Part shown: positions 3,479 to 19,317 of the stretch, in pieces
How positions within the stretch are numbered: the stretch's first letter is position 1
How the letters are laid out: each line of letters opens with the position of its first letter
From: Longivirga aurantiaca
GTDB lineage: Bacteria > Actinomycetota > Actinomycetes > S36-B12 > CAIYMF01
Direction: 5' to 3'
NCBI RefSeq assembly: GCF_042660085.1
Contig: NZ_JBHSTI010000002.1
Coordinates: 480,001-512,000 of the forward strand
DNA: 32,000 nt
The notes under the pieces: generated by a model
Databases searched by the model: none
What the model was told of the DNA's origin: nothing
What the model saw: the letters and a program-made list of their open reading frames with translations, nothing else
Translations under genes and position numbers: made by a program

Positions 3479-3550
3479 CGCCCCTGACGCCCCTGGCGGC
3501 CCGGGCGTGTTCGGCTGCGCCGGGGGCTCGTCCTCCTCTACGTTCCCGTC

Positions 3551-4714
3551 GTGCAGATCCTCATCCTCGGCGCCGGGTTCGGTGGCCTCGAGCTCGCCAG
3601 TCGTCTGTCCGAGGAGCTCGGCGACGCCGTCGACGTCGTGCTGGTCGACAAGGGCGACGGCTTCGTCTTCGGGTTCTCCAAGCTCGATGTGATGTTCGGG
3701 CGGGTGAGTCCCGAGCACGTGGTGCACCGCTTCGCCGACATCGCGAAGCCGGGCGTGACCTTCGTCCAGGCGGAGGTGACCGGGATCGACCCGGTGGCCC
3801 GGCGCGTCACGACCACCGTGGGCGAGCTGGTCGGTGACGTCCTCGTGGTCGCGCTCGGGGCAGACCTGCACCCCGAGCTGACTCCCGGCCTCCTCGAGGG
3901 CGGGCACGAGTTCTACACGGTGGCGGGGGCGTTCGCGGTCGCCGACGTCTTGCGGACGTTCGAGGGCGGCCGTGTCGTGGTGGGCGTGACGTCCACCCCG
4001 TTCAAGTGCCCGCCCGCCCCGAGCGAGACCACGCTGATGGTGCACGACCTCCTCGAGGCGCGAGGGCTGCTCGAGGTGTCGTCGGTGGAGCTCGTGCTCC
4101 CGCTGCCCGTGCCGATCCCGCCGTCGCCGCAGGCCTCCACGACGATCCTCGAGACCTTCGCCGAGCGCGGGATCGCCTTCCGTGGCGGCACCCTGGTCAC
4201 CGCGCTCGATCCGGAGCGCAAGGTCGCACTGCTGTCGGACGGCACCGAGCTGCCGTACGACCTGTTCCTCGGCGTCCCGGTGCACCGCGCTCCGGCCGTC
4301 GTGGTCGAGGCCGGACTCACCGAGGACGGGTGGATCCCGGTCGACGCGCTCACCCTCGAGACGCGGTACCCCGACGTCTACGCCGTGGGCGACGTGACGA
4401 GCGTCGGCACGCCGAAGGCCGGAGTGTTCGCCGAGGGGCAGGCCGACATCGTGGCCAGCGCCATCATCGCCCGGGTCCGCGGCGGCGACGCGGCGGAGTA
4501 CGACGGTCACGGCATCTGCTACATGGAGTTCGGGCACCAGCAGATCGCGATGGTCGACGTGTACTTCCAGAAGGGCGTGACCCCGCACGGCGACCTCATC
4601 GGCCCGTCGACCGACCTCATGGCCGAGAAGTCCCACTTCGGCACGAGCAGGGTCCGACGCTGGTTCGGCCGTGAGTGGTACGCCGTCGACGAGCCAGGTA
4701 CTCCGCCCCGCTGA
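3551..4714 (+). CDS. FAD-dependent pyridine nucleotide-disulfide oxidoreductase, sulfide:quinone oxidoreductase-like
   Basis: It uses a GTG start and has the N-terminal Rossmann motif ILILGAGFGGLELA. It also has the FKCPPAPSE motif typical of SQR-type enzymes and the C-terminal FAD motif VYAVGDVTSVG. Confidence 0.75.
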   Translation: MQILILGAGFGGLELASRLSEELGDAVDVVLVDKGDGFVFGFSKLDVMFGRVSPEHVVHRFADIAKPGVTFVQAEVTGIDPVARRVTTTVGELVGDVLVVALGADLHPELTPGLLEGGHEFYTVAGAFAVADVLRTFEGGRVVVGVTSTPFKCPPAPSETTLMVHDLLEARGLLEVSSVELVLPLPVPIPPSPQASTTILETFAERGIAFRGGTLVTALDPERKVALLSDGTELPYDLFLGVPVHRAPAVVVEAGLTEDGWIPVDALTLETRYPDVYAVGDVTSVGTPKAGVFAEGQADIVASAIIARVRGGDAAEYDGHGICYMEFGHQQIAMVDVYFQKGVTPHGDLIGPSTDLMAEKSHFGTSRVRRWFGREWYAVDEPGTPPR

Positions 4715-4908
4715 CGCTGGTGGGGGTCGGGTCAGGGTGCCGTGGGGGATCGTCCCCGACGTCGGCTCCCCGAACGTCCGCCTAGCGTCGCAGGCATGGA
4801 CGCACTGACCCGGATGTACGCGGACGCGTGGTCGCGGTTGCCCGTGGAGGTGCTCGAGCTCGTGGTCGTGCCCACGCCGCGACGGGCGGAGGACGACGCC
4901 GACGACTC

Positions 4909-5670
4909 CTAGGCGCCGGCGGCCGGGTGGAGGAACACGCAGAACTCGTTGCCCTCCGGGTCCGCGAGCACCCACCAGCCGATCTCGTCGTCGGGGGTGC
5001 GCAGCACAGTGGCGCCGGCGTCGACCAGCGCCTCCGGAGTGGCGACCCCGTCGGGCAGCTCGACGTCCCAGTGCATGCGGTTCTTCACGGTCTTGGTCTC
5101 GGGCACCTCGTTGAACACCCAGGCGTAGAAGGGGAATCCGGTCGCGCCCTGGATCCACCAGTACGGCGCCCCGTCGCGCGTCTGGGCCGTGCCGCCCGTC
5201 CGCGCCGCCCACCACTGCGCCACCGCGCCCGCGTCGACCGCATCGACCACGAGCTCGAAGGGGGTGGGCACCTCCACCGTCGGAGCACCCCACTCCGGCG
5301 GCGCAGGGGGCATGGCGCAGAAGAGGTTGCCGTCCGGGTCGGCGAGCACCCACCAGTGCTGGTCGCCCGCGGGCTCGCTCACCAGCCGCGCGCCCGCCTC
5401 GAGGAGGGGCGTCGGATCGGCCGCTGACAGGCGGAGGTCGAGGTGCACGCGGGTCTTCACCGCGCGCGGCTCGGGCACCGGATCCACCCACATGTGCTCG
5501 CCGTGCGGGCCGGCCGGAAGGACGGCGTACCCGCCGTCGTTCGTGCTCTGCACCGTGCGCGCGAGCAGGCGGCCCCAGAACGACGCGAGGACCTCGGAGT
5601 CCACGGCATCGAGGCAGAGGTCCTTGAACGAGCAGTCGGGGGCGGCGGCGGGCGGCGTCGTCTCGGTCAC
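4909..5670 (-). CDS. VOC/glyoxalase-like family protein with two tandem domains
   Basis: This is the C-terminal 253 codons of the 1355-aa track ORF, starting at GTG 5670 (VTETTPP...). Two repeated halves each end in the motif WWVLADPDGNLFC / WWVLADPEGNEFC. The rest of the track ORF upstream is antisense to mfd. Confidence 0.75.
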   Translation of the reverse strand: MTETTPPAAAPDCSFKDLCLDAVDSEVLASFWGRLLARTVQSTNDGGYAVLPAGPHGEHMWVDPVPEPRAVKTRVHLDLRLSAADPTPLLEAGARLVSEPAGDQHWWVLADPDGNLFCAMPPAPPEWGAPTVEVPTPFELVVDAVDAGAVAQWWAARTGGTAQTRDGAPYWWIQGATGFPFYAWVFNEVPETKTVKNRMHWDVELPDGVATPEALVDAGATVLRTPDDEIGWWVLADPEGNEFCVFLHPAAGA

Positions 5671-5811
5671 ACGGGCATCCTGCACGGCGGCACCGACCGG
5701 CGGGGAGGGTCGCCGGTGTCCCCGCGGGCACGTAGGGTCGAGGTGTCGCGCACGCGACCACCCCGCCCTCGCCGAGGAGCGGGGCTTACGGGCGTGCGCA
5801 GGGAAGGAACC

Positions 5812-9407
<3,596 letters not shown>

Positions 9408-9411
<4 letters not shown>

Positions 9412-10052
9412 GCACCGCCACCCGACGCCGCACCCTGACCCGAGCGGCCGGTGCGGCCGTCCTCGCCGTCCTCCTGACTGCCTGCGGCAACAGCCTGGCC
9501 GGCAAGGCGCTCGTGGTGGGCGGCACGTCCGTCGACGACGCGGAGATCGCGGAGCTGACGGAGGAGGTGCGCGACGTCTATGCGGCCTACCCGAAGGACT
9601 TCGCCGCCGTGGGGGCCTCGTTCGACGAGGGCACCGTCGTGTCCACCAACGTCAACCGGCTCACGCGTCACCTGCTCCTGCTCGAGGCCGCCGCCCGCGA
9701 GGGCATCACGGTGACGCAGGGCCAGATCGACACGTCGATCCGCACCGCCCTCGAGAACCAGTTCAACGGCAGCCAGACCCTGCTCGACGTCACGCTCGCC
9801 GCCCAGCAGCAGGCGCCGCCGAGCGCGACGTCCGAGGTCGTCTACGACTTCCTGGTCCTGCAGGCGCTGGCCGAGAAGCTCAAGCCGGCAGACCCGGCGA
9901 CCGCGCCCGTCAACGAGTACCTCGTCGACCTCGCGGCCGAGCTCGGCGCGGAGGTCTCCCCGCGCTTCGGCGTGTGGGACGCCGAGAGCATCTCGCTCAC
10001 GCCGGTGCCCGACGACCTCTCGGTGCTGCCGAACCTCGCGCCCACCGAGTGA
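9408..10052 (+). CDS. Lipoprotein (SurA N-terminal-domain-like), conserved mfd-mazG neighbour
   Basis: The GTG at 9408 overlaps the mfd stop (GTGA) and follows GAGAGGAA. The signal is RRRTLTRAAGAAVLAVLLTAC, with lipobox LLTAC. The domain assignment is tentative. Confidence 0.65.
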
Positions 10053-10065
10053 CCGGCGCGCGGTC

Positions 10066-10773
10066 GTGACGGACGCTGCTGCTGTGGGCTCCCGCCCGGG
10101 GGAGCGGCTGCTCGACCTCGTCGCGGTCATGGACCGGCTGCGCTCTCCGGGCGGCTGCCCGTGGGACGCCGAGCAGACCCACCACTCCCTCGTCGAGTAC
10201 CTGGTCGAGGAGGCCTACGAGACGGTCGAGGCGATCGAGACCTCGGACGACGCCGCGCTCCGCGAGGAGCTCGGCGACCTCCTGCTCCAGGTGGTGTTCC
10301 ACGCACGCATCGCCGAGGAGCACGCCGCGCCGTGGTCGATCGACGACGTCGCGGCAGGCATCGTCGACAAGCTCGTGTCGCGCCACCCGCACGTGTTCGC
10401 CGACGTCGACGCGTCCACCGCGGCCGAGGTCGAGGCCAACTGGGCGGCGCTGAAGGCTGCTGAGAAGGGTCGCGAGTCGGTCACCGACGGCGTGCCGCAG
10501 GCGCTGCCCGCACTCGTGCTCGCCGCCAAGCTGATGTCGCGGGCGAAGCAGGTCCCGGTGGTCCCTGCCGAGCCTGATGCAGCCGCTGCTGCCGCCTCGG
10601 CGGTGGCCTCGCTGTCCGCCGGGCGCCCGACCGCGGAGGCGGCGTACGGCGACCTGCTGCTGGCGCTCGTGGCGCAGGCCCGCGCCGACGGTGTGGACGC
10701 CGAGCAGGCGCTGCGCGAGGCCACGCGCGGCTACCGGGCCCGCGTCCGCGCCGCCGAGGGCCCGCACGCCTGA
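10066..10773 (+). CDS. mazG: MazG nucleoside triphosphate pyrophosphohydrolase
   Basis: It uses a GTG start. Recognisable motifs are LLDLVAVMDRLRSPGGCPWDAEQTHHSLVEYLVEEAYETVEAIE and ELGDLLLQVVFHARIAEE. It sits directly downstream of mfd, as in other actinobacteria. Confidence 0.9.
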   Translation: MTDAAAVGSRPGERLLDLVAVMDRLRSPGGCPWDAEQTHHSLVEYLVEEAYETVEAIETSDDAALREELGDLLLQVVFHARIAEEHAAPWSIDDVAAGIVDKLVSRHPHVFADVDASTAAEVEANWAALKAAEKGRESVTDGVPQALPALVLAAKLMSRAKQVPVVPAEPDAAAAAASAVASLSAGRPTAEAAYGDLLLALVAQARADGVDAEQALREATRGYRARVRAAEGPHA

Positions 10774-10816
10774 CGCCGCGGCCCCGCGGCTGCGCGATCG
10801 CGGCTACGGTCGGGGC

Positions 10817-12520
10817 ATGACCGACTGGGAGCTCGGGGACCGATCCGGTGACGTCGAGCAGACGTTCGCCGCGCTGGCCGACCACGTCATCGACGGGCTG
10901 CTCGCGCGCAGCCCCGAGACCGCGACCGCCCTCGGCGACCACCGCTTCGACGACCGGCTGGCCGACCTCAGCGAAGACGGCGTCGGCGAGACGCTGGCCC
11001 GCATCGACGAGGACCTGGCAGGCGTCGACCAGATCGACGACCTCGCGCTCGGCCAGGCGGCCGCCGTCGACCTCGAGATCCTGCGCGCCCGCCTCGCCGC
11101 CGAGAAGCTGAGCCTCGAGACGATCCGCGAGAGCACCTGGAACCCGCTCGTGGCCAACCCCGGGTCGGCGCTGCACCTGCTGCTGTCGCGCGACTTCGCG
11201 CCGGTGGAGGAGCGGCTCGAGTCGGTGGCCGGTCGGCTCGGCGCCGTGCCGGAGCACCTGGCGGTGGCGCGCGACGTCCTGGGCGAGATGCCGCAGGTCC
11301 ACGTGGAGACCGCGCTCGGGCAGTTCGAGGGCACGCTCGGGCTGCTGCGCGGCCCGCTCGAGGACGCGCTCGCCTCGGCTCCCGGTCTGCGGTCACTGGT
11401 CGAGCCCGTGCGCGACGCCGCGGCCGGCGCGCTCGAGGCCCACCTCGGGTGGCTCCGCGACCGGCTCGAGTCCGGGGTGGCCGCGCGCGACCCGCGGCTC
11501 GGGCCGGAGAAGTACGCCGCCAAGCTCTGGGCCACGCTCGACGCCGACCTCACGCCCGACGACGTCCTGCACCGCGCGGAGACCGACCTCGTGCGGATCG
11601 AGGGCGAGATCGCGCGGGCGGCTGCCGAGTACCTCGGTGAGCCCGCGCCGCCGCCGGACGACGCGGGCGCGCTCGTGCGCCGCGCGCTCGACGCCGTCGC
11701 GGCCGAGGGCCCGGTCGACGACACGACCGTGCTGCCGCTGTGCGTCGCGGCGCTCGGCACCACGACCGCGTTCGTGCGCGAGCACGACCTGGTGACGGTG
11801 CACGACGACGCGGTCGAGATCGTCGAGATGCCCGAGATCCACCGGGGCGTGGCCGTCGCGTACTGCGACGCGCCGGGCCCGCTCGAGCCGCGCGCGCTCC
11901 CGACGTTCTTCGCCGTGGCCCCGACGCCGACGGGCTGGGACGGCGCCCGGGTCGCCTCGTTCTACCGCGAGTACAACGCGAGCATGCTGCACAACCTCAC
12001 CGTCCACGAGGCCATGCCGGGCCACGTGCTGCAGCTCGCGCACTCGCGCCGCTGCAGCACTCCGAGCCGCGTGCGCACCACGTTCATGAGCGGCACGTTC
12101 GTCGAGGGCTGGGCGGTGTACGCCGAGCAGCTCATGGCCGAGCGCGGGTACGACGCCGGCCACGGCGAGAGGGGTGCCCTCGCGATCCGGCTGCAGCAGC
12201 TGAAGATGCAGCTGCGCATGACGATCAACGCGATCCTCGACGTGCGCGTCCACACCCGCGGCATGACCGAGGACGAGGCGATGCGGCTCATGCAGGTGCG
12301 CGGTCACCAGGAGGAGGGCGAGGCCGCGGGCAAGTGGCGCCGCGCGCTGCTCACCTCGACCCAGCTGTCGACGTACTACGTGGGCTGGACCGCGGTGGCC
12401 GACCTCGTGGCCGACCTGAATGCGGCCAACCCGGGCTGGACCGACCGGCAGGTGCACGACGCCGTGCTCGCGCACGGATCGCCGCCGCCACGCCACCTGC
12501 GCAGCCTGCTCGGCCTCTGA
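10817..12520 (+). CDS. DUF885 family protein (metallopeptidase-like HExxPGH motif)
   Basis: The ATG at 10817 (MTDWELGDRSG...) lies inside track ORF 10577..12520. The motif VHEAMPGHVLQ and the overall length (567 aa) fit DUF885. Confidence 0.8.
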   Translation: MTDWELGDRSGDVEQTFAALADHVIDGLLARSPETATALGDHRFDDRLADLSEDGVGETLARIDEDLAGVDQIDDLALGQAAAVDLEILRARLAAEKLSLETIRESTWNPLVANPGSALHLLLSRDFAPVEERLESVAGRLGAVPEHLAVARDVLGEMPQVHVETALGQFEGTLGLLRGPLEDALASAPGLRSLVEPVRDAAAGALEAHLGWLRDRLESGVAARDPRLGPEKYAAKLWATLDADLTPDDVLHRAETDLVRIEGEIARAAAEYLGEPAPPPDDAGALVRRALDAVAAEGPVDDTTVLPLCVAALGTTTAFVREHDLVTVHDDAVEIVEMPEIHRGVAVAYCDAPGPLEPRALPTFFAVAPTPTGWDGARVASFYREYNASMLHNLTVHEAMPGHVLQLAHSRRCSTPSRVRTTFMSGTFVEGWAVYAEQLMAERGYDAGHGERGALAIRLQQLKMQLRMTINAILDVRVHTRGMTEDEAMRLMQVRGHQEEGEAAGKWRRALLTSTQLSTYYVGWTAVADLVADLNAANPGWTDRQVHDAVLAHGSPPPRHLRSLLGL

Positions 12521-12522
12521 CC
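12504..12522 (+). repeat. Direct repeat copy 1 (GCCTGCTCGGCCTCTGACC), covering the last codons and TGA stop of the DUF885 gene
   Basis: It is a perfect 19/19 match to 16662..16680, read directly from the sequence. Confidence 0.95.
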
Positions 12523-12600
12523 CTCCCCGGCCGTGCGCCCGTCGGGGGCCGGATCGCGTCGCTGGGGACGCGCTCGGACCCCCAGCCCGAGACCCCCGCC

Positions 12601-12650
12601 GATTTGGTAGTGGGAAGTCGCAGCGGGGCGCGAGTTCCCACTACCAAGTC
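12601..12650 (+). repeat. Long hairpin element, copy A (probable terminator of the DUF885 gene)
   Basis: The core is a perfect 13-bp inverted repeat, ttggtagtgggaa (12604-12616) and ttcccactaccaa (12635-12647). It extends inward by 4 bp after one mismatch and outward by 3 bp. It is related to copy B at 16691-16732. Confidence 0.8.
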
Positions 12651-12738
12651 GGCGTGCGGCTGGAATCGGTTGTGGTTGCTGTGGATATCGCCTGTCGGTG
12701 GTCGGTGCATTGTCGGAGGTGGTGGCCATGATGGGGTC

Positions 12739-14214
12739 ATGTCCCAGGCCACCTTCGTCGATCCGGCGGTGGAGTTCGCGCGCCTGGTCGCGGGTGCGCG
12801 GGGTCTGCTGAGCGAGGCGTCGGCGCTGGCCGGTTCGGGTGCGGTCGCGGGTGTCGGTCTGGCGGGTCTGCCGGAGCTGACGGCGGAGCTGTTCTCGGTC
12901 CGCGACGCCGCCCACGCCCTGGGGACCGTCGCGGTGGACCGCCTGGACGCCTCAGGGGTTCTCGCGGCACAGGGGTTCGGGTCGACGACGGCGTTCCTGA
13001 CCCAGCGCACCGGCATGGCAGCGGGCAAGGCCGGCAGCGTCGTCTCCGGCGCCCGCACGCTGCGGTCCTATGCCGCGACGCGGGTCGCGCTGGTCGCGGG
13101 CCGGGTCACCCCGGACCTGGCCGCTGCCCTGGTGCGCGGGTCGGAGGCGGCGATCGCGGACAAGACCGACCAGGACCGGGTGCCGTGGCGGGCGTTCTGC
13201 GAGGACTACCTCCTCCCCATCGCGGAGCAGGGCTCGGTCGAGGAGGTCGCGGGCGCTGCCGCGGTGCTCAAGGAGATCCTCGATCCCGAGTCCGCGGCCC
13301 GGCGCAAGGAGGAGTCGATGGCGGGCCAGTTCCTCACCGTGACGCAGGTCGGGGACCAGTTCGTGATCAAGGGCGCCCTCACCCTGGAGGACGGCGCGGC
13401 GCTCAAGGTGCTGCTGGACCGGATGCGCGACGCGAAGTACCGGTCGGGATCCCTGACCCCGGACGAGCAGCCCACCGGCGACGCGGCCACAGATGAGCGG
13501 CGGCGGCGGATCGCGGCCGCGCATCAGGACGCCCTGTCGTTGAACCACCTCGTGCAGCTGTGGCTGACCAACGGCATGGTCGGCCGCGCCCACGGGGTCC
13601 GCCCGCACGTCACCATCACCACGTCGGTCGACGACCTCGACGCGGGGTTCCCGGGCGAGATGACCGTCCCCGGGATGTCGTCCCCGGTGCTGGTCAACGC
13701 CGAGATGGTGAAGCGGATGCTGTGCGACGCGTCGGTGACCGAGATCGGCGTCATCGGGTCCGTCCCCGACCGGCACGCGCACCACCACGACGGCGTCCCC
13801 TGCCACGGACCCGCCCACCACGGACGACACGGCCACGTCCACGGCGTCTCAGGCTGCGAGCTGCACCCCGGCTCCGCGCGGTTGCTGCGCCGCCGCCACC
13901 ACGTCTGGGACGAGGGCCGCCGGTACCGCACCGTCCCGCCGAGGCTGCGCCGGGCGCTGGACCTGCGGGACCGGCACTGCTCGTTCCCCGGCTGCCGGAT
14001 CGCGGTCGGGTGGTGCGAGGCCCACCACATCACCGAGTGGGAGCACGGCGGCGCCACCGACCTCGACAACCTCACGTTGTTGTGCGCGAAGCATCACCAC
14101 TCGGTGCACGAGGGCGGCTGGACCATCGTGAAGAACCCCGGCATCGACCCGGGATGCCCGGCCTGGCTCACCGTCGACCCACCCGACCCCAGCCCACCAC
14201 GAACCCAGCCCTGA
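12739..14214 (+). CDS. DUF222 domain / HNH endonuclease (REP13E12-family type)
   Basis: The ATG at 12739 (MSQATFVDPAVEF...) lies within track ORF 11740..14214, whose upstream part overlaps DUF885 out of frame. The DUF222-type motif is VKRMLCDASV...GRRYRTVPPRLRRALDLRDRHCSFPGC. The HNH motif is CEAHHITEWEHGGATDLDNLTLLCAKHHHSVHEGGW. Confidence 0.85.
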   Translation: MSQATFVDPAVEFARLVAGARGLLSEASALAGSGAVAGVGLAGLPELTAELFSVRDAAHALGTVAVDRLDASGVLAAQGFGSTTAFLTQRTGMAAGKAGSVVSGARTLRSYAATRVALVAGRVTPDLAAALVRGSEAAIADKTDQDRVPWRAFCEDYLLPIAEQGSVEEVAGAAAVLKEILDPESAARRKEESMAGQFLTVTQVGDQFVIKGALTLEDGAALKVLLDRMRDAKYRSGSLTPDEQPTGDAATDERRRRIAAAHQDALSLNHLVQLWLTNGMVGRAHGVRPHVTITTSVDDLDAGFPGEMTVPGMSSPVLVNAEMVKRMLCDASVTEIGVIGSVPDRHAHHHDGVPCHGPAHHGRHGHVHGVSGCELHPGSARLLRRRHHVWDEGRRYRTVPPRLRRALDLRDRHCSFPGCRIAVGWCEAHHITEWEHGGATDLDNLTLLCAKHHHSVHEGGWTIVKNPGIDPGCPAWLTVDPPDPSPPRTQP

Positions 14215-14457
14215 AGAAGGGCCGGCACGCGAGATCCACCAGCACCACCCCGAGACCGCACCACCCGGCAGGGAGCGGTCCCTGTGGCATGTCCGGGCAC
14301 GGGTGGCAACGCGAGAAGGAACCGGCATCAGGACGAGCCTTCGGATCGGCGGGACACCGTCGATCCCACGGCTGGAAACTGGATGTGCGGTGCGGCGGGA
14401 GACAGGGCCGGCACCCAGTTGACTCTGGTCACCGCCCCCGTTGACGGGAGGCGCACC

Positions 14458-15669
14458 ATGCGCAGGTTCATCGCCATCCTGGCCGCGGCGGCCACCTTCG
14501 TGCTGACGCTCGCCAGCTGTGGTGGCTCCGACGGCTCGACCTCGGGCAGCTCGAGTCCCGCCGTGTCGAACTCACCGACAACGACCTCGAGCCCGTCCTG
14601 GCCCAAGCCGACGAACGCAGCCCTGCCCAAGGCCATGGTCGACCAGTTGCAGGCCCAGCTCACCAGCTACATCGCCGAGAAGAAGCTCGTCGGCGTGACC
14701 GCCTCCGTCGTAACCCGCGACGGCATGTGGGCTGGAGCCGCTGGAGTCGACGGTGCCGGGAAGACCCTCAGCCCGGACTCCGCGATGGTCATCGCCAGCA
14801 CCACGAAGACGTTCACCGCCGCCGAGATCCTTCTCCTCTCCGCGCAGGGGAAGATCAACCTCGACGCCCCCGTGACCGACTACGTGTCTCTGCCGTTCGA
14901 CGCCCAGGGCGCCACCGTCCGCCAACTGGCCACGATGACCAGCGGCTTCCCGGACCTCCCCGAAGCGACCATTCGCCCGAAGGTGAGTGCTGATCTGACG
15001 AAGGAGTGGAAGTGCACCGATGTCGTCGCGCTCGTGGACCCCAAGGCGGCACGCAAGGGCTCGCTGGGCGGGGCGGCCGCCTACAACGGTCTGAACTACT
15101 ACGTCCTCGGCATGGTGATCGAGAAGGTCACGAGCAAGCCGCTCGCGGATGCCATCCGCACGGACCTGCTCGTGCCTGCCGGCGTGACTCGGGTCTGGAC
15201 CCAGACCGGTGACAAGCCCGAGAAGCCGTCGGCACCGCTGGCGATGCCGGTCGATGACACGACGAACCCCGTCGTCGATGCCACCAGCGGATACCTGCCG
15301 TCCGCTGCCGCGGCGACCAGCAGCTGCGCGGGAGCCGGGATGGCCGCGGACGCACCGAGCCTGGCGCGTTGGGGATACCTGCTCTATGGCGGGTACGTCA
15401 TCGACAACAGCCTCGTGAAGACCATGACCACTCCGAACCCCATGGGCGGAGACAACAGCTACGGCTTCGGAACGATGATCGACAGCGACAACGGCGACCC
15501 GCTGTGGGGCCACGCCGGCAACTACACCCAGTACACGTCGATCTTGCTGGTCTGGCCCAAGACCTCGACAGTGGTCTCGGTGCTCGTCCCCATGACGGGC
15601 GGAACGGACAACGACGTCAGGGGCGACCTCGCCTTCCAGCTCAAGCAGACAGCGACGGCATCCAACTGA
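14458..15669 (+). CDS. Lipoprotein serine hydrolase, beta-lactamase/transpeptidase-like (class C / DD-peptidase family)
   Basis: The ATG at 14458 is preceded by GGGAGG (14445-14450). The signal plus lipobox is MRRFIAILAAAATFVLTLASC. The S-x-x-K motif is ASTTKTF and the H-x-G box is WGHAGNY. The middle Y-x-N box is not clear (AAYNGLNYYVLG). Confidence 0.8.
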   Translation: MRRFIAILAAAATFVLTLASCGGSDGSTSGSSSPAVSNSPTTTSSPSWPKPTNAALPKAMVDQLQAQLTSYIAEKKLVGVTASVVTRDGMWAGAAGVDGAGKTLSPDSAMVIASTTKTFTAAEILLLSAQGKINLDAPVTDYVSLPFDAQGATVRQLATMTSGFPDLPEATIRPKVSADLTKEWKCTDVVALVDPKAARKGSLGGAAAYNGLNYYVLGMVIEKVTSKPLADAIRTDLLVPAGVTRVWTQTGDKPEKPSAPLAMPVDDTTNPVVDATSGYLPSAAAATSSCAGAGMAADAPSLARWGYLLYGGYVIDNSLVKTMTTPNPMGGDNSYGFGTMIDSDNGDPLWGHAGNYTQYTSILLVWPKTSTVVSVLVPMTGGTDNDVRGDLAFQLKQTATASN

Positions 15670-16229
15670 CGCGACAGCGGGCACAGCCCCGGTCCTGCCC
15701 TGCGCATGTCCCCGATGGGCGAGGCGTCGAGAGCAGGCCGCTGGTGGAGGGGCACACACAGGTTTCCTGCGCATGTGCAGGCCGGGTGTGCGCGATATGC
15801 CGCTATCGCTCGCTTCACGTGAGCCGACCCGGCGCCAGCGCGTGCCTGGGCAAGGGTGACGAGGTCAAGGGCGAGTTGCTCAGGCTGACCTGGGATCAGG
15901 TGCATGCCTGGCGCAGGGACGACGTGATGAACCTCGCTGCGGCCGCCGTCCTGTGGAAGCGGACGCCTTGCAGGACGAACGGGCGGTCGCCGTGAACGCG
16001 GCCGCCGACGAGGTCGTGTTCGCGATGATGATCACGCTCGATGAGCCTGGCGACCCGGAGGGGGATCCTGGGGGTGATGGGTGCGAGCTTGTGGACCCCG
16101 CGACTGGATGACCGATCGACGGCCTGCACGAAGGGCTCCTGAGGGCTGACCCCACCGGTAACGAGGGCAGCGACCTCTTCGCCTGAGGCGTGGCGCACCC
16201 GAGCCGCTGTCGTCGTCAGCCCGTCACGG

Positions 16230-16579
16230 CTATTCAGCGACCCTCCGGTGGCTGAACGCGAAGTCCCTCACGCCGCTGTGCTCGCCGATGCCCATCGCCG
16301 TGACGCCGCGCTCGAGCAGCAGCGCTCGAGCTGCTTCCAGGTCATCGGTCTGCAGCGCGATGGACGGGGTGGCCAGATCGAGGCCGTACGGGTTGTCGGC
16401 CATCATCTCGAGCGGGACACGCTCGAGGCGAAGGGCTGGTCGGCGAAGCCGACCTGGACGATGGAGAAGTCGTCGACCTCGGTGCGCGCCTTCTCCACCA
16501 GCCCGAACTGTTCGACCCGGAACCGGCGGCAGACCTCCGCGTCGGTGACATCGAGAACGACGTAGCGGACGCGCAACAC
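16230..16579 (-). pseudogene. Frameshifted VOC/glyoxalase-family gene remnant
   Basis: From GTG 16579 (GAAGG upstream), frame A reads VLRVRYVVLDVTDAEVCRRFRVEQFGLVEKARTEVDDFSIVQVGFADQPF... and stops at 16405-16403. A second frame, readable as VOC-like sequence from 16427 (open somewhat further upstream), continues LERVPLEMMADNPYGLDLATPSIALQTDDLEAARALLLERGVTAMGIGEHSGVRDFAF... to TAG at 16232-16230. The span is 350 nt, which is not a multiple of 3. Confidence 0.55.
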
Positions 16580-16661
16580 GTCGATACCTTCGTCGGCCCT
16601 CTGGGGACCTACACCACCTGGGTCGTGAGCCGGCCGGACCAGGTCACGGTAGCGATCTGCC

Positions 16662-16680
16662 GCCTGCTCGGCCTCTGACC
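16662..16680 (+). repeat. Direct repeat copy 2 (GCCTGCTCGGCCTCTGACC)
   Basis: It is a perfect 19/19 match to 12504..12522. Here it ends a short orphan reading frame (...RLLGL*) rather than an intact gene. Confidence 0.95.
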
Positions 16681-16690
16681 ATGGCCGACT

Positions 16691-16732
16691 CGGTAGTGGT
16701 AAGTCGGCCTCTGCCGCGAGATACCACTACCG
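16691..16732 (+). repeat. Long hairpin element, copy B (between the direct repeat and the O-mannosyltransferase stop; probable bidirectional terminator)
   Basis: The core is a perfect 11-bp inverted repeat, cggtagtggta (16691-16701) and taccactaccg (16722-16732). It ends 8 nt from the stop codon of the convergent gene at 16740. It shares GGTAGTGGnAAGTCG...GCGAG...CCACTACC with copy A. Confidence 0.8.
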
Positions 16733-16739
16733 AATCGGG

Positions 16740-18380
16740 CTAGACCCAGGTGTCGAACCACATCCGCAGGTGCCAGGCGTCGTACGGCATGATCTGCGCG
16801 CTCCAGATCGGGTAGAAGAACCACGCCGCTGCCACCGCCAGCAGGACGACCGACCCGACGACGCTCGCACCGATGGTGCGACGACGCGGCTCGGCGTCGG
16901 CGGGGCCGAGGATCGTGCCGAGGGTCATCGCGAGGGCGATGCACACGAACGGCGCCATCACGACGCTGTAGAACGTGAAGATCGTGCGGCCCTGGAAGCC
17001 CAGCCACGGCGCCCAGGCGGCGAGCAGCGCGAGCACGACGTAGCCCGAGCGCCAGTCGCGACGGGCGGCCCAGCGCCAGGCCTGGTGCACGAGGGCGGCC
17101 GCGCCCGCCCACCAGATGATCGGGTTGCCGAGCGCGAGCACCTCGGCGGCGCACTTGTCGGCCCCGCACGTGCCGGCCGGGATGTCGGGCGTGCCCTCGT
17201 AGAAGAAGCTGGTCGGCCGGGTCTGCAGCAGCCAGCTCCACGCGTTGCTCTGGTACGAGTGCGGCGACGACAGTCCCTGATGGAAGCTCAGCGCCTGGCC
17301 GTGGTAGTACCAGAGCGACCTGGCCCAGTCGGGCAGGAGGGCCCAGACGCCGGACGCCGGGTTCTTCGACGCCCAGTCGCGGTAGAACCCGTCGTCGCTG
17401 AGGATCCAGCCGGTCCACGACACGACGTACACCACGACGACGGTGCCGACGATCGCGACGAAGGCGCGCAGCCCGTCGAGGAACGCGCCGATCACGGCGT
17501 CGCCGGCGTTGGTGCCCACGAGGCGACGGGTGCCGTACTCCCACGCCACCGTGCAGAGCCCGAACGCGACCACGAACCAGACGCCCGACCACTTGGTGGC
17601 GCACGCCATGCCGAGCGCGAAGCCCGCGGCCCAGCGCCACGGGCGCCAGCCGCTGCTCGGGCCGTAGCCCTGACGCAGGGACATGATCGCGTCGTGGTCG
17701 TCGGCGAACGCGCGGACGCGGTCCGCGAGGCGTCTGCGCGTTCGTTCGCGGTCCATGAGGATGCAGCCGAATGCGACGACGACCCAGAACGCGAGGGTGT
17801 TGTCGAGCAGTGCCGTGCGCGACAGCGCGATCGACATCCCGTCGATCGCGACGAAGAGCCCGGCGGCGGCGGCGATGAGGGTGGAACGGGTGAGCCGCCG
17901 CGTGATGCGGACGACGAGCAGCACAAGCAGCGTGCCGAGCAGCGCCATCATGAAGCGCCAGCCGAACGGCGTGAGCCCGAACGCGTACTCGCCGATCGCG
18001 ATCGTCCACTTGCCGACCGGCGGGTGCACGACGTACGCCGCGCTGTCCTTGAAGACGTCGATCGTGCGCCAGTTGCCGTCGCTGGCGAGGATCAGGTCGT
18101 TCGCGTCGTCGACGAACTGCCGCTCGGTGCCGTAGCGCAGCAGCGAGAGCGCGTCCTTCATGTAGTACGTCTCGTCGAACACCACGGCGTGCGGACGGCC
18201 GAGGTCCCAGAAGCGCAGGACGCCGGCGAGTGCGGTGATCGCGAGCGTGACCCACCAGGACGTCGCGCGGTCGGCCGGCATCGCGGGGGAGAGGCGGTCG
18301 GCGAGGGGCGACAGCCGCTGGTCGCCCGAGGGCGGGGGCCCCGGTGCCGGGGCGCGCTCCGCCTCGATGGTCGCCGTCAC
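16740..18380 (-). CDS. pmt: Protein O-mannosyltransferase (GT39, polyprenol-phosphate-mannose dependent)
   Basis: The product is polytopic. It has the PMT loop-1 DE motif VVFDETYYMKDA after the first TM helix (WWVTLAITALAGVLRFWDLG). The start is placed at GTG 18380; alternatives are ATG 18281 and the track start 18572, which would overlap rsmI. It is divergent from rsmI, as for Rv1002c/Rv1003. Confidence 0.85.
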   Translation of the reverse strand: MTATIEAERAPAPGPPPSGDQRLSPLADRLSPAMPADRATSWWVTLAITALAGVLRFWDLGRPHAVVFDETYYMKDALSLLRYGTERQFVDDANDLILASDGNWRTIDVFKDSAAYVVHPPVGKWTIAIGEYAFGLTPFGWRFMMALLGTLLVLLVVRITRRLTRSTLIAAAAGLFVAIDGMSIALSRTALLDNTLAFWVVVAFGCILMDRERTRRRLADRVRAFADDHDAIMSLRQGYGPSSGWRPWRWAAGFALGMACATKWSGVWFVVAFGLCTVAWEYGTRRLVGTNAGDAVIGAFLDGLRAFVAIVGTVVVVYVVSWTGWILSDDGFYRDWASKNPASGVWALLPDWARSLWYYHGQALSFHQGLSSPHSYQSNAWSWLLQTRPTSFFYEGTPDIPAGTCGADKCAAEVLALGNPIIWWAGAAALVHQAWRWAARRDWRSGYVVLALLAAWAPWLGFQGRTIFTFYSVVMAPFVCIALAMTLGTILGPADAEPRRRTIGASVVGSVVLLAVAAAWFFYPIWSAQIMPYDAWHLRMWFDTWV

Positions 18381-18408
18381 CCCGACAGCATAAGGAGGTG
18401 GCAGGCTG

Positions 18409-19317
18409 ATGCTCGTGGACGCTGCCCCGAACGACACCGGATCCTCCGGCGACGGCACGGCGTCCTCCGGTCTCCTCGTGCTGGCTGCCACGCCCATCGG
18501 ACGCGCGGACGACGCCTCCGGTCGCCTCCGTGACCTGATCGCAACCGCCGACGTGGTCGCGGCCGAGGACACCCGGCGCCTGCGGCGCCTCGCCGACGAC
18601 CTGGGCGTGACGATCGGCGGCCGGGTCGTGTCGTACTACGACGCCGTCGAGCGGCAGCGGCTGCCCGAGCTCGTCGCCGCCCTCGAGGGCGGCCGGACCG
18701 TGCTGCTCGTGACCGACGCGGGGATGCCCAGCGTGAGCGATCCGGGCTACCGGCTCGTGGCCGCGGCGGTCGAGGCCGGGATCCGTGTGACCGCCGCCCC
18801 CGGGCCCAGCGCGGTCCTGACGGCGCTCGCGCTCTCCGGCCTGCCCGTGGACCGGTTCGCGTTCGAGGGCTTCCTGCCGCGCAAGGCGGGGGAGCGCAGG
18901 CGCGCGCTCGCGGCGGTGGCCGCCGACCCCCGAACGCTGGTCTTCTTCGAGGCGCCGCACCGCGTGGGCGAGGCGCTTGCGGCCATGGCCGAGGTGATCG
19001 GGGACGACCGCCCGGCGGCGGTGTGCCGCGAGCTCACCAAGACCTACGAGGAGGTACGCCGGGGCACGCTCGGCGAGCTCACCGCCTGGGCCGCCGACGG
19101 GCTGCGCGGCGAGATCACGATCGTGGTCCAGGGCGCCGCGCCGGGCACCGTGCCGGCTGCGCCCGGCGCGGACGGTGCGGATCCCCGCAAGGCGGCGCTC
19201 GCGGCCGTGGCAGCGGCGTACGGCCTCGACCGCGGCGCCGTCTACGACGCCGTCGTCGCCGCCAAGAAGGCCGCGGCGGCCGGATCCGGGGGGATGGGGC
19301 TGCCGCCGCGCAACTAG
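18409..19317 (+). CDS. rsmI: 16S rRNA (cytidine1402-2'-O)-methyltransferase RsmI
   Basis: AAGGAGG lies 10 nt upstream of the ATG. The tetrapyrrole-methylase-fold motifs are [35 protein letters not shown] and [15 protein letters not shown]. Confidence 0.9.

Follow-up and report, generated by a model that had tools for sequence, protein, structure and literature searches.

How can some 4 kb of DNA come to lie exactly at the end of a gene, bracketed by a perfect direct repeat, where no recombinase is found? The question is raised by an islet of Longivirga aurantiaca in the window analyzed here, a stretch of 32,000 nucleotides (assembly GCF_042660085.1, contig NZ_JBHSTI010000002.1, positions 480,001 to 512,000 of the forward strand). 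The islet separates a DUF885 gene from the convergent gene of a protein O-mannosyltransferase (PMT) and carries a nuclease gene of the DUF222-HNH (REP13E12) type. Among the repeats of Actinobacteria that still lack an explanation, such '13E12' genes rank with the most common. The original prediction, made from the sequence of the window, had regarded their mobility mechanism as not established, and full-text searches of the literature indeed found no account of boundaries, target or mobility mechanism for REP13E12 or DUF222-HNH elements. The original prediction had also treated the islet as one uniform element. Comparison with related loci revealed instead a composite, made up of a conserved hairpin and DUF222-HNH module of ~1.7 kb (12597-14327) and of 2.3 kb of lineage-specific, partly decayed cargo unrelated to it. 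For its origin we propose an HNH-dependent, hairpin-directed insertion with a presumed role for the HNH protein, a reading in which we place about as much belief as doubt.

Boundaries of the islet and its unoccupied site

The 19-nt sequence GCCTGCTCGGCCTCTGACC is present in exactly two copies in the window, at 12504-12522 and 16662-16680, and no third appeared even when two mismatches were allowed. It had been called far beyond chance, in agreement with zero matches in 100 shuffles, and with one mismatch allowed the repeat grows to 22 nt (GC[A/C]GCCTGCTCGGCCTCTGACC). As first described, the left copy comprises the last codons of the DUF885 gene with its TGA stop codon, followed by CC, and the right copy is non-coding and closes no gene. 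The target, the DUF885 gene (10577-12520, plus strand; Pfam DUF885, E 3e-93; start codon uncertain), has orthologues of 82-87% identity at loci L001, L004 and L062. The PMT gene (16740-18572, minus strand; Pfam PMT 8.8e-20, PMT_4TMC 4.1e-14) is convergent with it, and its orthologues adjoin DUF885 in L001, L004 and L061.

Relatives had been expected in the Micrococcales, whereas the closest ones proved to be Sporichthyales (Longivirga) and metagenome-assembled genomes (MAGs) labelled Nanopelagicales. Three of the related loci (L004, L001 and L061) are unoccupied, with DUF885 and PMT adjacent, convergent and directly joined, which corroborates the predicted insertion at the 3' end of DUF885. 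In L004 the DUF885 stop codon is followed by 15 nt, one hairpin of the family described below and the PMT stop codon. This locus aligns to both 19-mer copies of the window, and its alignment to the right flank begins at 16663, so that the right copy, the hairpin behind it (hairpin 2) and PMT represent the ancestral junction and 12523-16661 the insert. L061, the closest relative, is collinear with the window over 26 kb at ~90% identity. By BLAST, the native flanks reach the repeat on both sides, positions 12300-12520 being 96% and positions 16742-16900 91% identical to unoccupied L061, and consequently native DNA continues up to the left repeat. Clean on both sides, the insertion comprises 4,139 bp (12523-16661), is delimited precisely by the repeat copies and lies a few bases past the DUF885 stop codon and 2-5 nt before a pre-existing terminator-like hairpin. 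An empty site of the window type would read DUF885-19mer-ATGGCCGACTCGG-hairpin-PMT, and a circular form of the islet would read ...GGTAGCGATCTGCC-GCCTGCTCGGCCTCTGACC-CTCCCCGGCC... at its junction. The MAG of L061 possesses a second DUF885 gene (L062), 84% identical to the window protein, in another context and with no PMT downstream.

A related long hairpin after each repeat copy had been noted, and the two hairpins do share GGTAGTGGnAAGTCG...CGAGnTnCCACTACC, at 12606-12645 and 16692-16731. Hairpin 1 (12597-12654), a near-perfect 57-nt palindrome, forms the left edge of the HNH module and folds as DNA at -30.0 kcal/mol (z -11.3). Hairpin 2 (16683-16740, plus strand) is native to the DUF885-PMT junction, abuts the PMT stop codon and folds at -21.9 kcal/mol (z -6.4). 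Because unoccupied L004 and L001 have a lone hairpin at the same position, hairpin 2 belongs to the target and not to the element, and the proposal that both hairpins form element ends had to be abandoned. The same applies to their supposed common orientation: under covariance model R1 hairpin 2 scores 71.7 bits on the plus and 49.7 bits on the minus strand, and hairpin 1, since it is a near-perfect palindrome, cannot be oriented by its 71 versus 69 bits on the two strands. Orientation as a clue was also dropped in view of the L001 hairpin, which appears inverted relative to that of L004.

The hairpin site itself varies among the unoccupied loci. L001 is arranged like L004, but an IS481-family element (rve, LZ_Tnp_IS481; 11806-12917) with a CTAG duplication sits in the hairpin loop, which makes the hairpin an insertion hot spot for other elements too. 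In L061, DUF885 and PMT abut with no hairpin in between; the junction at 11840-11860 reads TGA-TGCCG|CGGCTGG-AGACCC and resembles that of L004, the palindrome having been either exactly deleted or never acquired. Hairpins may thus be gained and lost as a unit.

A profile hidden Markov model and a covariance model of the hairpin, both trained on six members, were run over the two strands of 285 kb from close relatives. Apart from the training set, just the split hairpin of L001 was recovered (weak, E 0.056); accordingly, hairpins were located only upstream of modules, or alone at DUF885-PMT in L004 and L001 and beside PMT in the window. The same family lies 5' of the HNH gene in the window, L080 and L082, degenerate remnants lie beside the modules of L081, L083, L086, L087 and L090, and a hairpin or a recognisable remnant forms the left edge of every module examined. 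The stems carry compensatory changes. The plasmids searched contained neither the hairpin nor a close HNH relative, and viral contigs gave chance matches only to the hairpin pattern, in low-GC DNA.

Composition sets the islet apart only in part, the cargo differing from the flanks and the nuclease gene not. The right half of the islet has 65-69% GC versus 72-78% in the flanks, and GC at third codon positions (GC3) is 0.89 in the hydrolase gene of the cargo, compared with a host-like 0.94 in the HNH gene and 0.94-0.96 in the flanks. At its right junction the islet bears no specialised terminus; the sequence upstream of a glyoxalase pseudogene is broken off there at what looks like a random point. 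The reported lack of a recombinase was confirmed: neither a recombinase domain in the four genes (Pfam) or in six frames of 15660-16745, nor a transposase domain (DDE, HUH/Y1, serine or tyrosine) in the islet's open reading frames (ORFs) or in the same six frames was detected. Rfam gave no match in the window, and its sole tRNA lies far from the islet.

The DUF222-HNH module and its cargo

The module is a conserved, selfish unit of the REP13E12 repeat type and consists of a spacer, the 57-nt hairpin, a leader, the DUF222-HNH gene and a 3' end. Its gene (12739-14214, plus strand) is intact and encodes 491 amino acids, with matches to DUF222 (3e-14) and HNH (6.5e-6) that both exceed the curated Pfam cut-offs, and the catalytic and zinc-binding Cys/His residues of the HNH domain are invariant among 72 homologues. 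Ratios of nonsynonymous to synonymous substitution (dN/dS) of 0.17-0.39 between module copies indicate that the ORF is under purifying selection. An AlphaFold2 model of the protein reached a confidence (pLDDT) of 88. Structural relatives in the PDB were retrieved for the HNH domain only (McrA, IscB and the En domain of group II introns) and none for the well-predicted DUF222 part.

The non-coding parts of the module are conserved as well, with long invariant blocks over ~80 nt of leader and ~110 nt past the stop codon in seven copies. The spacer between repeat and hairpin 1 (12523-12596, plus strand) holds a GGATCGCGTCG...CGCGCTC motif that is also found upstream of other HNH modules, related motifs being present in L080, L081 and L086. 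The leader (12655-12738, plus strand), a candidate promoter region with a GGAGGTG Shine-Dalgarno sequence, shows conservation from about GGCCGGAATCGG onwards when the seven copies are aligned (alignment A2), and BLAST homology to L080, L081 and L083 begins at 12649-12657. The 3' untranslated end (14215-14327, plus strand; 'RE', ...CCGGCA; alignment A1) is where homology to every other copy ends, and the breakpoints of L080, L081, L083, L086, L087 and L090 coincide there. It outdoes the coding sequence in conservation: among copies 76-79% identical overall, a stem-loop over the stop codon (GCCCTGAAGAAGGGC) and the block ACCGCACCACCC...GCGGT are invariant, so that covariation is uninformative. 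The fold of 14215-14327 was no better than that of shuffled sequences (z 0.39) and gave no sign of a structured RNA. An RNA guide was considered too, and complementarity between the non-coding parts of the module and the target repeat was not above chance in the window and L081.

As a discrete unit, 12649-14327 is 76-89% identical by BLAST to copies found at a minimum of four further places on chromosomes, and over all relatives the module occupies at least five sites. In L080, L082 and L087 it is flanked by DUF6421 and an alcohol dehydrogenase gene, in L081/L084 and L083 it follows csrA within a flagellar cluster, and L086 and L091 represent two more sites. L004, with its empty DUF885-PMT site, comes from the MAG that also contributes two of the copies (L086, L087), and another two are found in L. 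aurantiaca (P0001, P0002); a metagenome scan with the HNH protein recovered just the L081 contig again and a 2-kb fragment. The phylogeny of the HNH genes does not track the site, for L080 groups with the window and L081 (dS 0.34-0.40) and not with L082 and L087 at its own site (dS 0.51-0.55). Copies may accordingly have replaced or converted one another, consistent with the gene conversion reported for REP13E12 in Mycobacterium tuberculosis (PMC13061034). On a short metagenome contig (L085, 1-1570) a DDE-type insertion sequence ends in the module leader, ~45 nt before the start codon.

To the right of the module the islet changes in character. The gene content given by the original prediction, a DUF222-HNH gene, a lipoprotein hydrolase with its own Shine-Dalgarno sequence and PMT on the minus strand, was verified with Pfam. 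The lipoprotein (14458-15669, plus strand), a member of the beta-lactamase/serine-hydrolase family, is intact (Pfam Beta-lactamase 1.3e-41; lipobox LASC; GGGAGG), has weak NCBIfam matches only and is absent from all related loci compared. The decayed coding sequence thought to follow it lacks an intact ORF as stated, across ~1.0 kb (15670-16661) where ~0.9 kb had been claimed, yet it includes an overlooked minus-strand pseudogene of the glyoxalase/VOC family. Its first part, 15670-16221, is a non-coding remnant with no Pfam match in six frames. The rest (16222-16661, minus strand) comprises the pseudogene, with at least two frameshifts and a truncated 3' end, and its own upstream region to ~13 nt from the junction. 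The coding part (~16222-16579) has homologues of 120-144 amino acids with up to 84% identity (E 1e-52; Pfam Glyoxalase/Glyoxalase_6), one of which, P0133, aligns through an N-terminal extension to the upstream region in the window.

Cargo differs by genome even at one and the same site (window versus L090; L081 versus L083; L080 versus L082 versus L087), always beginning at the right end of the module (window 14327), and tblastx found no cargo common to the islands. Glyoxalase/VOC genes or fragments lie beside the hairpin or module at five loci (L080 5576-5805, L082 5337-5771, L083 12107-12520, L087 9220-9648 and window 16222-16579). A shared cargo gene was rejected, as the five represent different VOC subfamilies, and they recur either by coincidence or because the kind of cargo is biased. 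In the cargo to the right of HNH modules each small ORF is followed by a motif of ~25 nt, GCGCAGATGTGCCGwTmGCGCTCGC, at L081 7593-10989 (six copies), L083 7456-8537, L087 12482-12873, L090 11411-11439 and L086 4997-5021. Searches with CAGATGTGCCGwTmGCGCTCGC gave E 1e-6 to 1e-2 in these five cargos, and a single weak copy in the window (15794-15814, E 0.17). The right end of the module resembles this motif, which has the look of a regulatory repeat or of one that marks cassette junctions. At window 3511-4795 the window differs from L061 by another indel, in which ~1.3 kb with a Pyr_redox_2 oxidoreductase ORF (3551-4714) stand in place of ~0.2 kb.

Origin of the islet

The csrA site offers a second island for comparison, occupied in L081 and L083 and empty in L088/L089, which were recovered via a neighbouring 200-amino-acid gene. 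The L081 island (5632-10989) consists of a spacer, a degenerate hairpin, the module and then six small ORFs, one of them an Imm8 immunity protein. It is bracketed by GCCCGCCGAGTAGCTGCCT and GCCCGACGAGTAGCTGCCT, the csrA stop region recurring 5.4 kb downstream. The repeat is again 19 nt long, with 18 of the 19 positions matching (GCCCG[C/A]CGAGTAGCTGCCT), and its right copy ends one base short of where synteny with L083 resumes. The ORF reading into this copy shows no similarity to CsrA and thus is no paralogue. No recombinase was found in the L081 island. The repeats of L081 and the window (GCCTGCTCGGCCTCTGACC) are unrelated in sequence and therefore derive from the target; the 19-bp repeat appears to be a target duplication, not a common recombination core such as the att core of a site-specific recombinase. 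No bracketing repeat above the 13-15-nt background was found at L080, L082, L083, L086 or L087.

The empty csrA allele contains a lone hairpin of the same family between two stop codons. Consequently, both sites with a recovered unoccupied allele, DUF885-PMT and csrA, hold a lone hairpin exactly where others hold a module-led island. In the window the right repeat ends 5 nt ahead of CGACTCGG, which opens hairpin 2, and in the empty csrA allele (L088) the 19 nt equivalent to the L081 repeat end 6 nt ahead of the corresponding CGATTCGG. In both cases the repeat sits 5-6 nt from the hairpin base, as read directly in the window and as deduced from L088 for csrA.

How long the module has been at the DUF885-PMT site can be judged from the more distant L090, where a module occupies the same site with other cargo from the right end on and with no clear right repeat; its islet, too, contains no recombinase. 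After the DUF885 stop codon 41 of 55 spacer positions align between L090 and the window, a score reached by one of 2000 shuffles. The modules are 82% and the flanks 81-85% identical, which implies that the module is an old resident of the site or spreads between genomes at the same site. The repeat copies of the window are identical to each other, its DUF885 end differs from L090 at four of 19 positions and its flanks match unoccupied L061, which together make the window arrangement recent relative to the divergence from L090. On this comparison the insertion in the window seems fairly recent.

The comparative data favour, without proving, a role of the HNH/hairpin module, because a second recombinase-less, HNH-led island has a 19-nt repeat of its own and lone hairpins occur at both empty sites. 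The HNH nuclease would recognise its cognate palindrome at an unoccupied site and introduce breaks to the left of the stem, at distances of about 5 and about 24 nt. Repair by the host might then fill in the 19-nt-staggered ends around the incoming island, or might copy the island, with an occupied allele as template, on the side of DUF885 and join ends on the other. Either route would duplicate the 19 bp between break and insertion point. Thereafter the module would be a long resident, with its right end as a hot spot of cargo gain and loss. A more far-reaching version seems rather improbable to us, namely that DUF222-HNH modules are a new kind of autonomous nuclease-driven integrative element: they would cut about 5 and about 24 nt to one side of a cognate ~57-nt palindrome at gene ends, host repair would install the module and its attachments with 19-bp duplications, and the right end would serve as a platform for the capture of gene cassettes.

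Several points weigh against hairpin-directed insertion. HNH nucleases cut and do not integrate, and the putative tie of DUF222-HNH to hairpin or strand joining is drawn from sequence comparison. The three unoccupied relatives came from a scan of species-representative genomes with the DUF885 protein, and the sample as a whole is small and mostly from MAGs. A bracketing repeat occurs at just two of about five independent sites, the window and L081 islands have nothing in common in the sequence of their outer ends, leaving no element termini to be recognised, and no hairpin follows the right repeat of L081, where later loss must be assumed. The geometry is not uniform either, for the hairpin lies left of the HNH gene in the module, yet the window island lies left of hairpin 2. 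If the module of L090 has long been at the site, the perfect repeat of the window must reflect later re-insertion or re-arrangement. Finally, the lone hairpins could be relics of lost modules and not targets.

Among the alternatives, a classical integrative island whose integrase was lost or acts in trans, with the 19-mer as att core and the HNH module as passenger, is unlikely in our judgement. Its layout would be that of the textbook, with a gene's 3' end included in the direct repeat, relatives that lack the insert, genes in decay and a composition that is atypical in part; core-dependent recombination maintains the perfect identity of two repeat copies, and these genomes do have circulating integrative elements that encode large serine recombinases. 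The sole such element observed, however, a 4.4-kb insert in L083 (7338-11766) with genes for a rolling-circle Rep (replication initiator) and a large serine integrase (phrog_95, 2e-102), targets the HNH gene and not gene ends, splitting that gene within the codons D-N|L of the HNH motif (GACAAC^CTCACG, with CAAC at both junctions; equivalent to window 14067-14070). Islands with 88%-identical modules have unrelated 19-nt repeats and therefore no common core. Neither a recombinase nor a remnant of one is present in the islets of the window and L090 or in the L081 island, the right junction falls into the upstream region of an ordinary glyoxalase fragment and not into an attP arm, and the lone hairpins of the module's own family at both unoccupied sites are left unexplained.

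It is equally doubtful that the palindrome alone drives the process, as a fragile 57-nt hairpin at which replication stalls or a host nuclease cleaves, and where end joining or template switching captures DNA and duplicates a few bases, with the HNH module as a passive part. That the same hairpin took up an IS481 element in L001 and was precisely lost in L061, that the cargo is a patchwork of truncated ordinary genes and that the junctions abut hairpin bases would all suit such a hot spot. So would the HNH phylogeny, in which L080 goes with the window and L081 and not with L082 and L087, and the report of REP13E12 loci as gene-conversion hot spots in M. tuberculosis (PMC13061034). It leaves unexplained, however, why hairpins are restricted to HNH modules or allelic sites, why the module keeps a constant position and orientation at the left edge of variable DNA and why two independent islands have 19-nt repeats; moreover, the ORF and untranslated ends of the module are constrained as in an active element.

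Under a last alternative the right 19-mer would be all that is left of a second DUF885, after paralogue decay or after the DUF885 end had been duplicated locally in tandem. The second DUF885 gene elsewhere in the MAG of L061 might speak for it, but it is excluded, as is chance, since the right copy is adjoined on its left by native upstream sequence of a glyoxalase gene on the other strand, similarity ends at 19-22 nt, no relative has a second DUF885 beside PMT, which settles the reservation of the original prediction, and the L081 ORF into the analogous repeat is unlike CsrA.

With this locus and its relatives, a REP13E12-type unit obtains clean boundaries, a fixed right end behind which cargo changes in every genome, and a specific DNA partner, the rare 57-nt palindrome by which unoccupied alleles, too, are marked. 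The picture of DUF222-HNH genes now also includes two islands that lack a recombinase and have 19-nt target repeats, and the question of whether and how these elements move becomes experimentally testable. The findings also suggest a way of making small variable islets at gene ends in which neither integrase nor transposase takes part.

Comparison with known systems

Integrase-less islands with att repeats at the 3' ends of genes are known as cis-mobilizable elements (CIMEs) and as pseudo-SCC (staphylococcal cassette chromosome) elements at rlmH. The islet resembles them in its direct repeat with the end of a conserved gene, the empty site in relatives and the lack of an internal recombinase. 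It differs from them in that repeats are dissimilar between islands with near-identical modules, no cognate recombinase is present in related islands and a module-specific hairpin lies at the target. Insertion sequences and transposons are set apart by their transposase domain and conserved terminal repeats, of which the islet has neither; its repeat length is 19 nt in two islands, and at five other loci none exceeds background. Systems of repetitive extragenic palindromes (REP/RAYT, REPIN) consist of short palindromic repeats in hundreds of copies with a Y1/HUH transposase, and some insertion sequences target REP hairpins. A short palindrome tied to one protein gene and hairpins between convergent genes as insertion points are shared with them; unlike them, the protein is an HNH nuclease instead of a Y1/HUH or DEDD transposase, and the hairpin is rare, none being unlinked to module sites in 285 kb. 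The L081 cargo, with six small ORFs each followed by the 25-nt motif, recalls integrons, in contrast to which an IntI-type recombinase and attC-like palindromes are missing and the window has one weak motif copy. Judged by its sequence, the islet lacks what defines an integrase island, an insertion sequence, a REP/RAYT system or an integron.

By domain architecture and repeat behaviour the nuclease gene is a member of the DUF222-HNH/REP13E12 family, with shared Pfam architecture only in relation to the M. tuberculosis copies. REP13E12 loci have been described there as hot spots of diversity and gene conversion with undefined function (PMC13061034), and one REP13E12 copy, beside the integrase of the prophage-like element phiRv1, houses that element and served as its attB (Rv1586c/Rv1587c; PMC1931498). 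The module likewise combines DUF222 and HNH in a multi-copy unit of ~1.4-1.7 kb that includes non-coding flanks, and its copies appear to exchange sequence. The serine-recombinase element inside the HNH gene of L083 parallels the phiRv1 case well outside Mycobacterium, the window copy having no such insert. Unlike REP13E12 as described, the units studied here have a 57-nt palindrome as left boundary, a fixed right end, empty alleles with a lone palindrome, 19-nt repeats around two islands and variable cargo at the right end, features of which the literature searched gave no description.

Free-standing homing endonuclease genes, as seg and mob of phage T4, come closest. In their intronless homing the gene is copied precisely and no target is duplicated. 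The likeness includes an intact nuclease gene between conserved genes, long residence with co-divergence and presence/absence polymorphism, as at DUF885-PMT, where the window and L090 have the module and L004, L001 and L061 do not. The proposed off-site cleavage of an unoccupied allele would match as well. Unlike such genes, the islet has a 19-bp repeat, a palindrome as putative recognition element, 2.3 kb of unrelated cargo and several chromosomal sites. By analogy, therefore, its behaviour most resembles that of a free-standing homing endonuclease gene, with duplication, palindrome, cargo and multiple sites as features that do not fit, and the finding is a better-defined variant of a known but unexplained element family, with a testable mechanistic lead.

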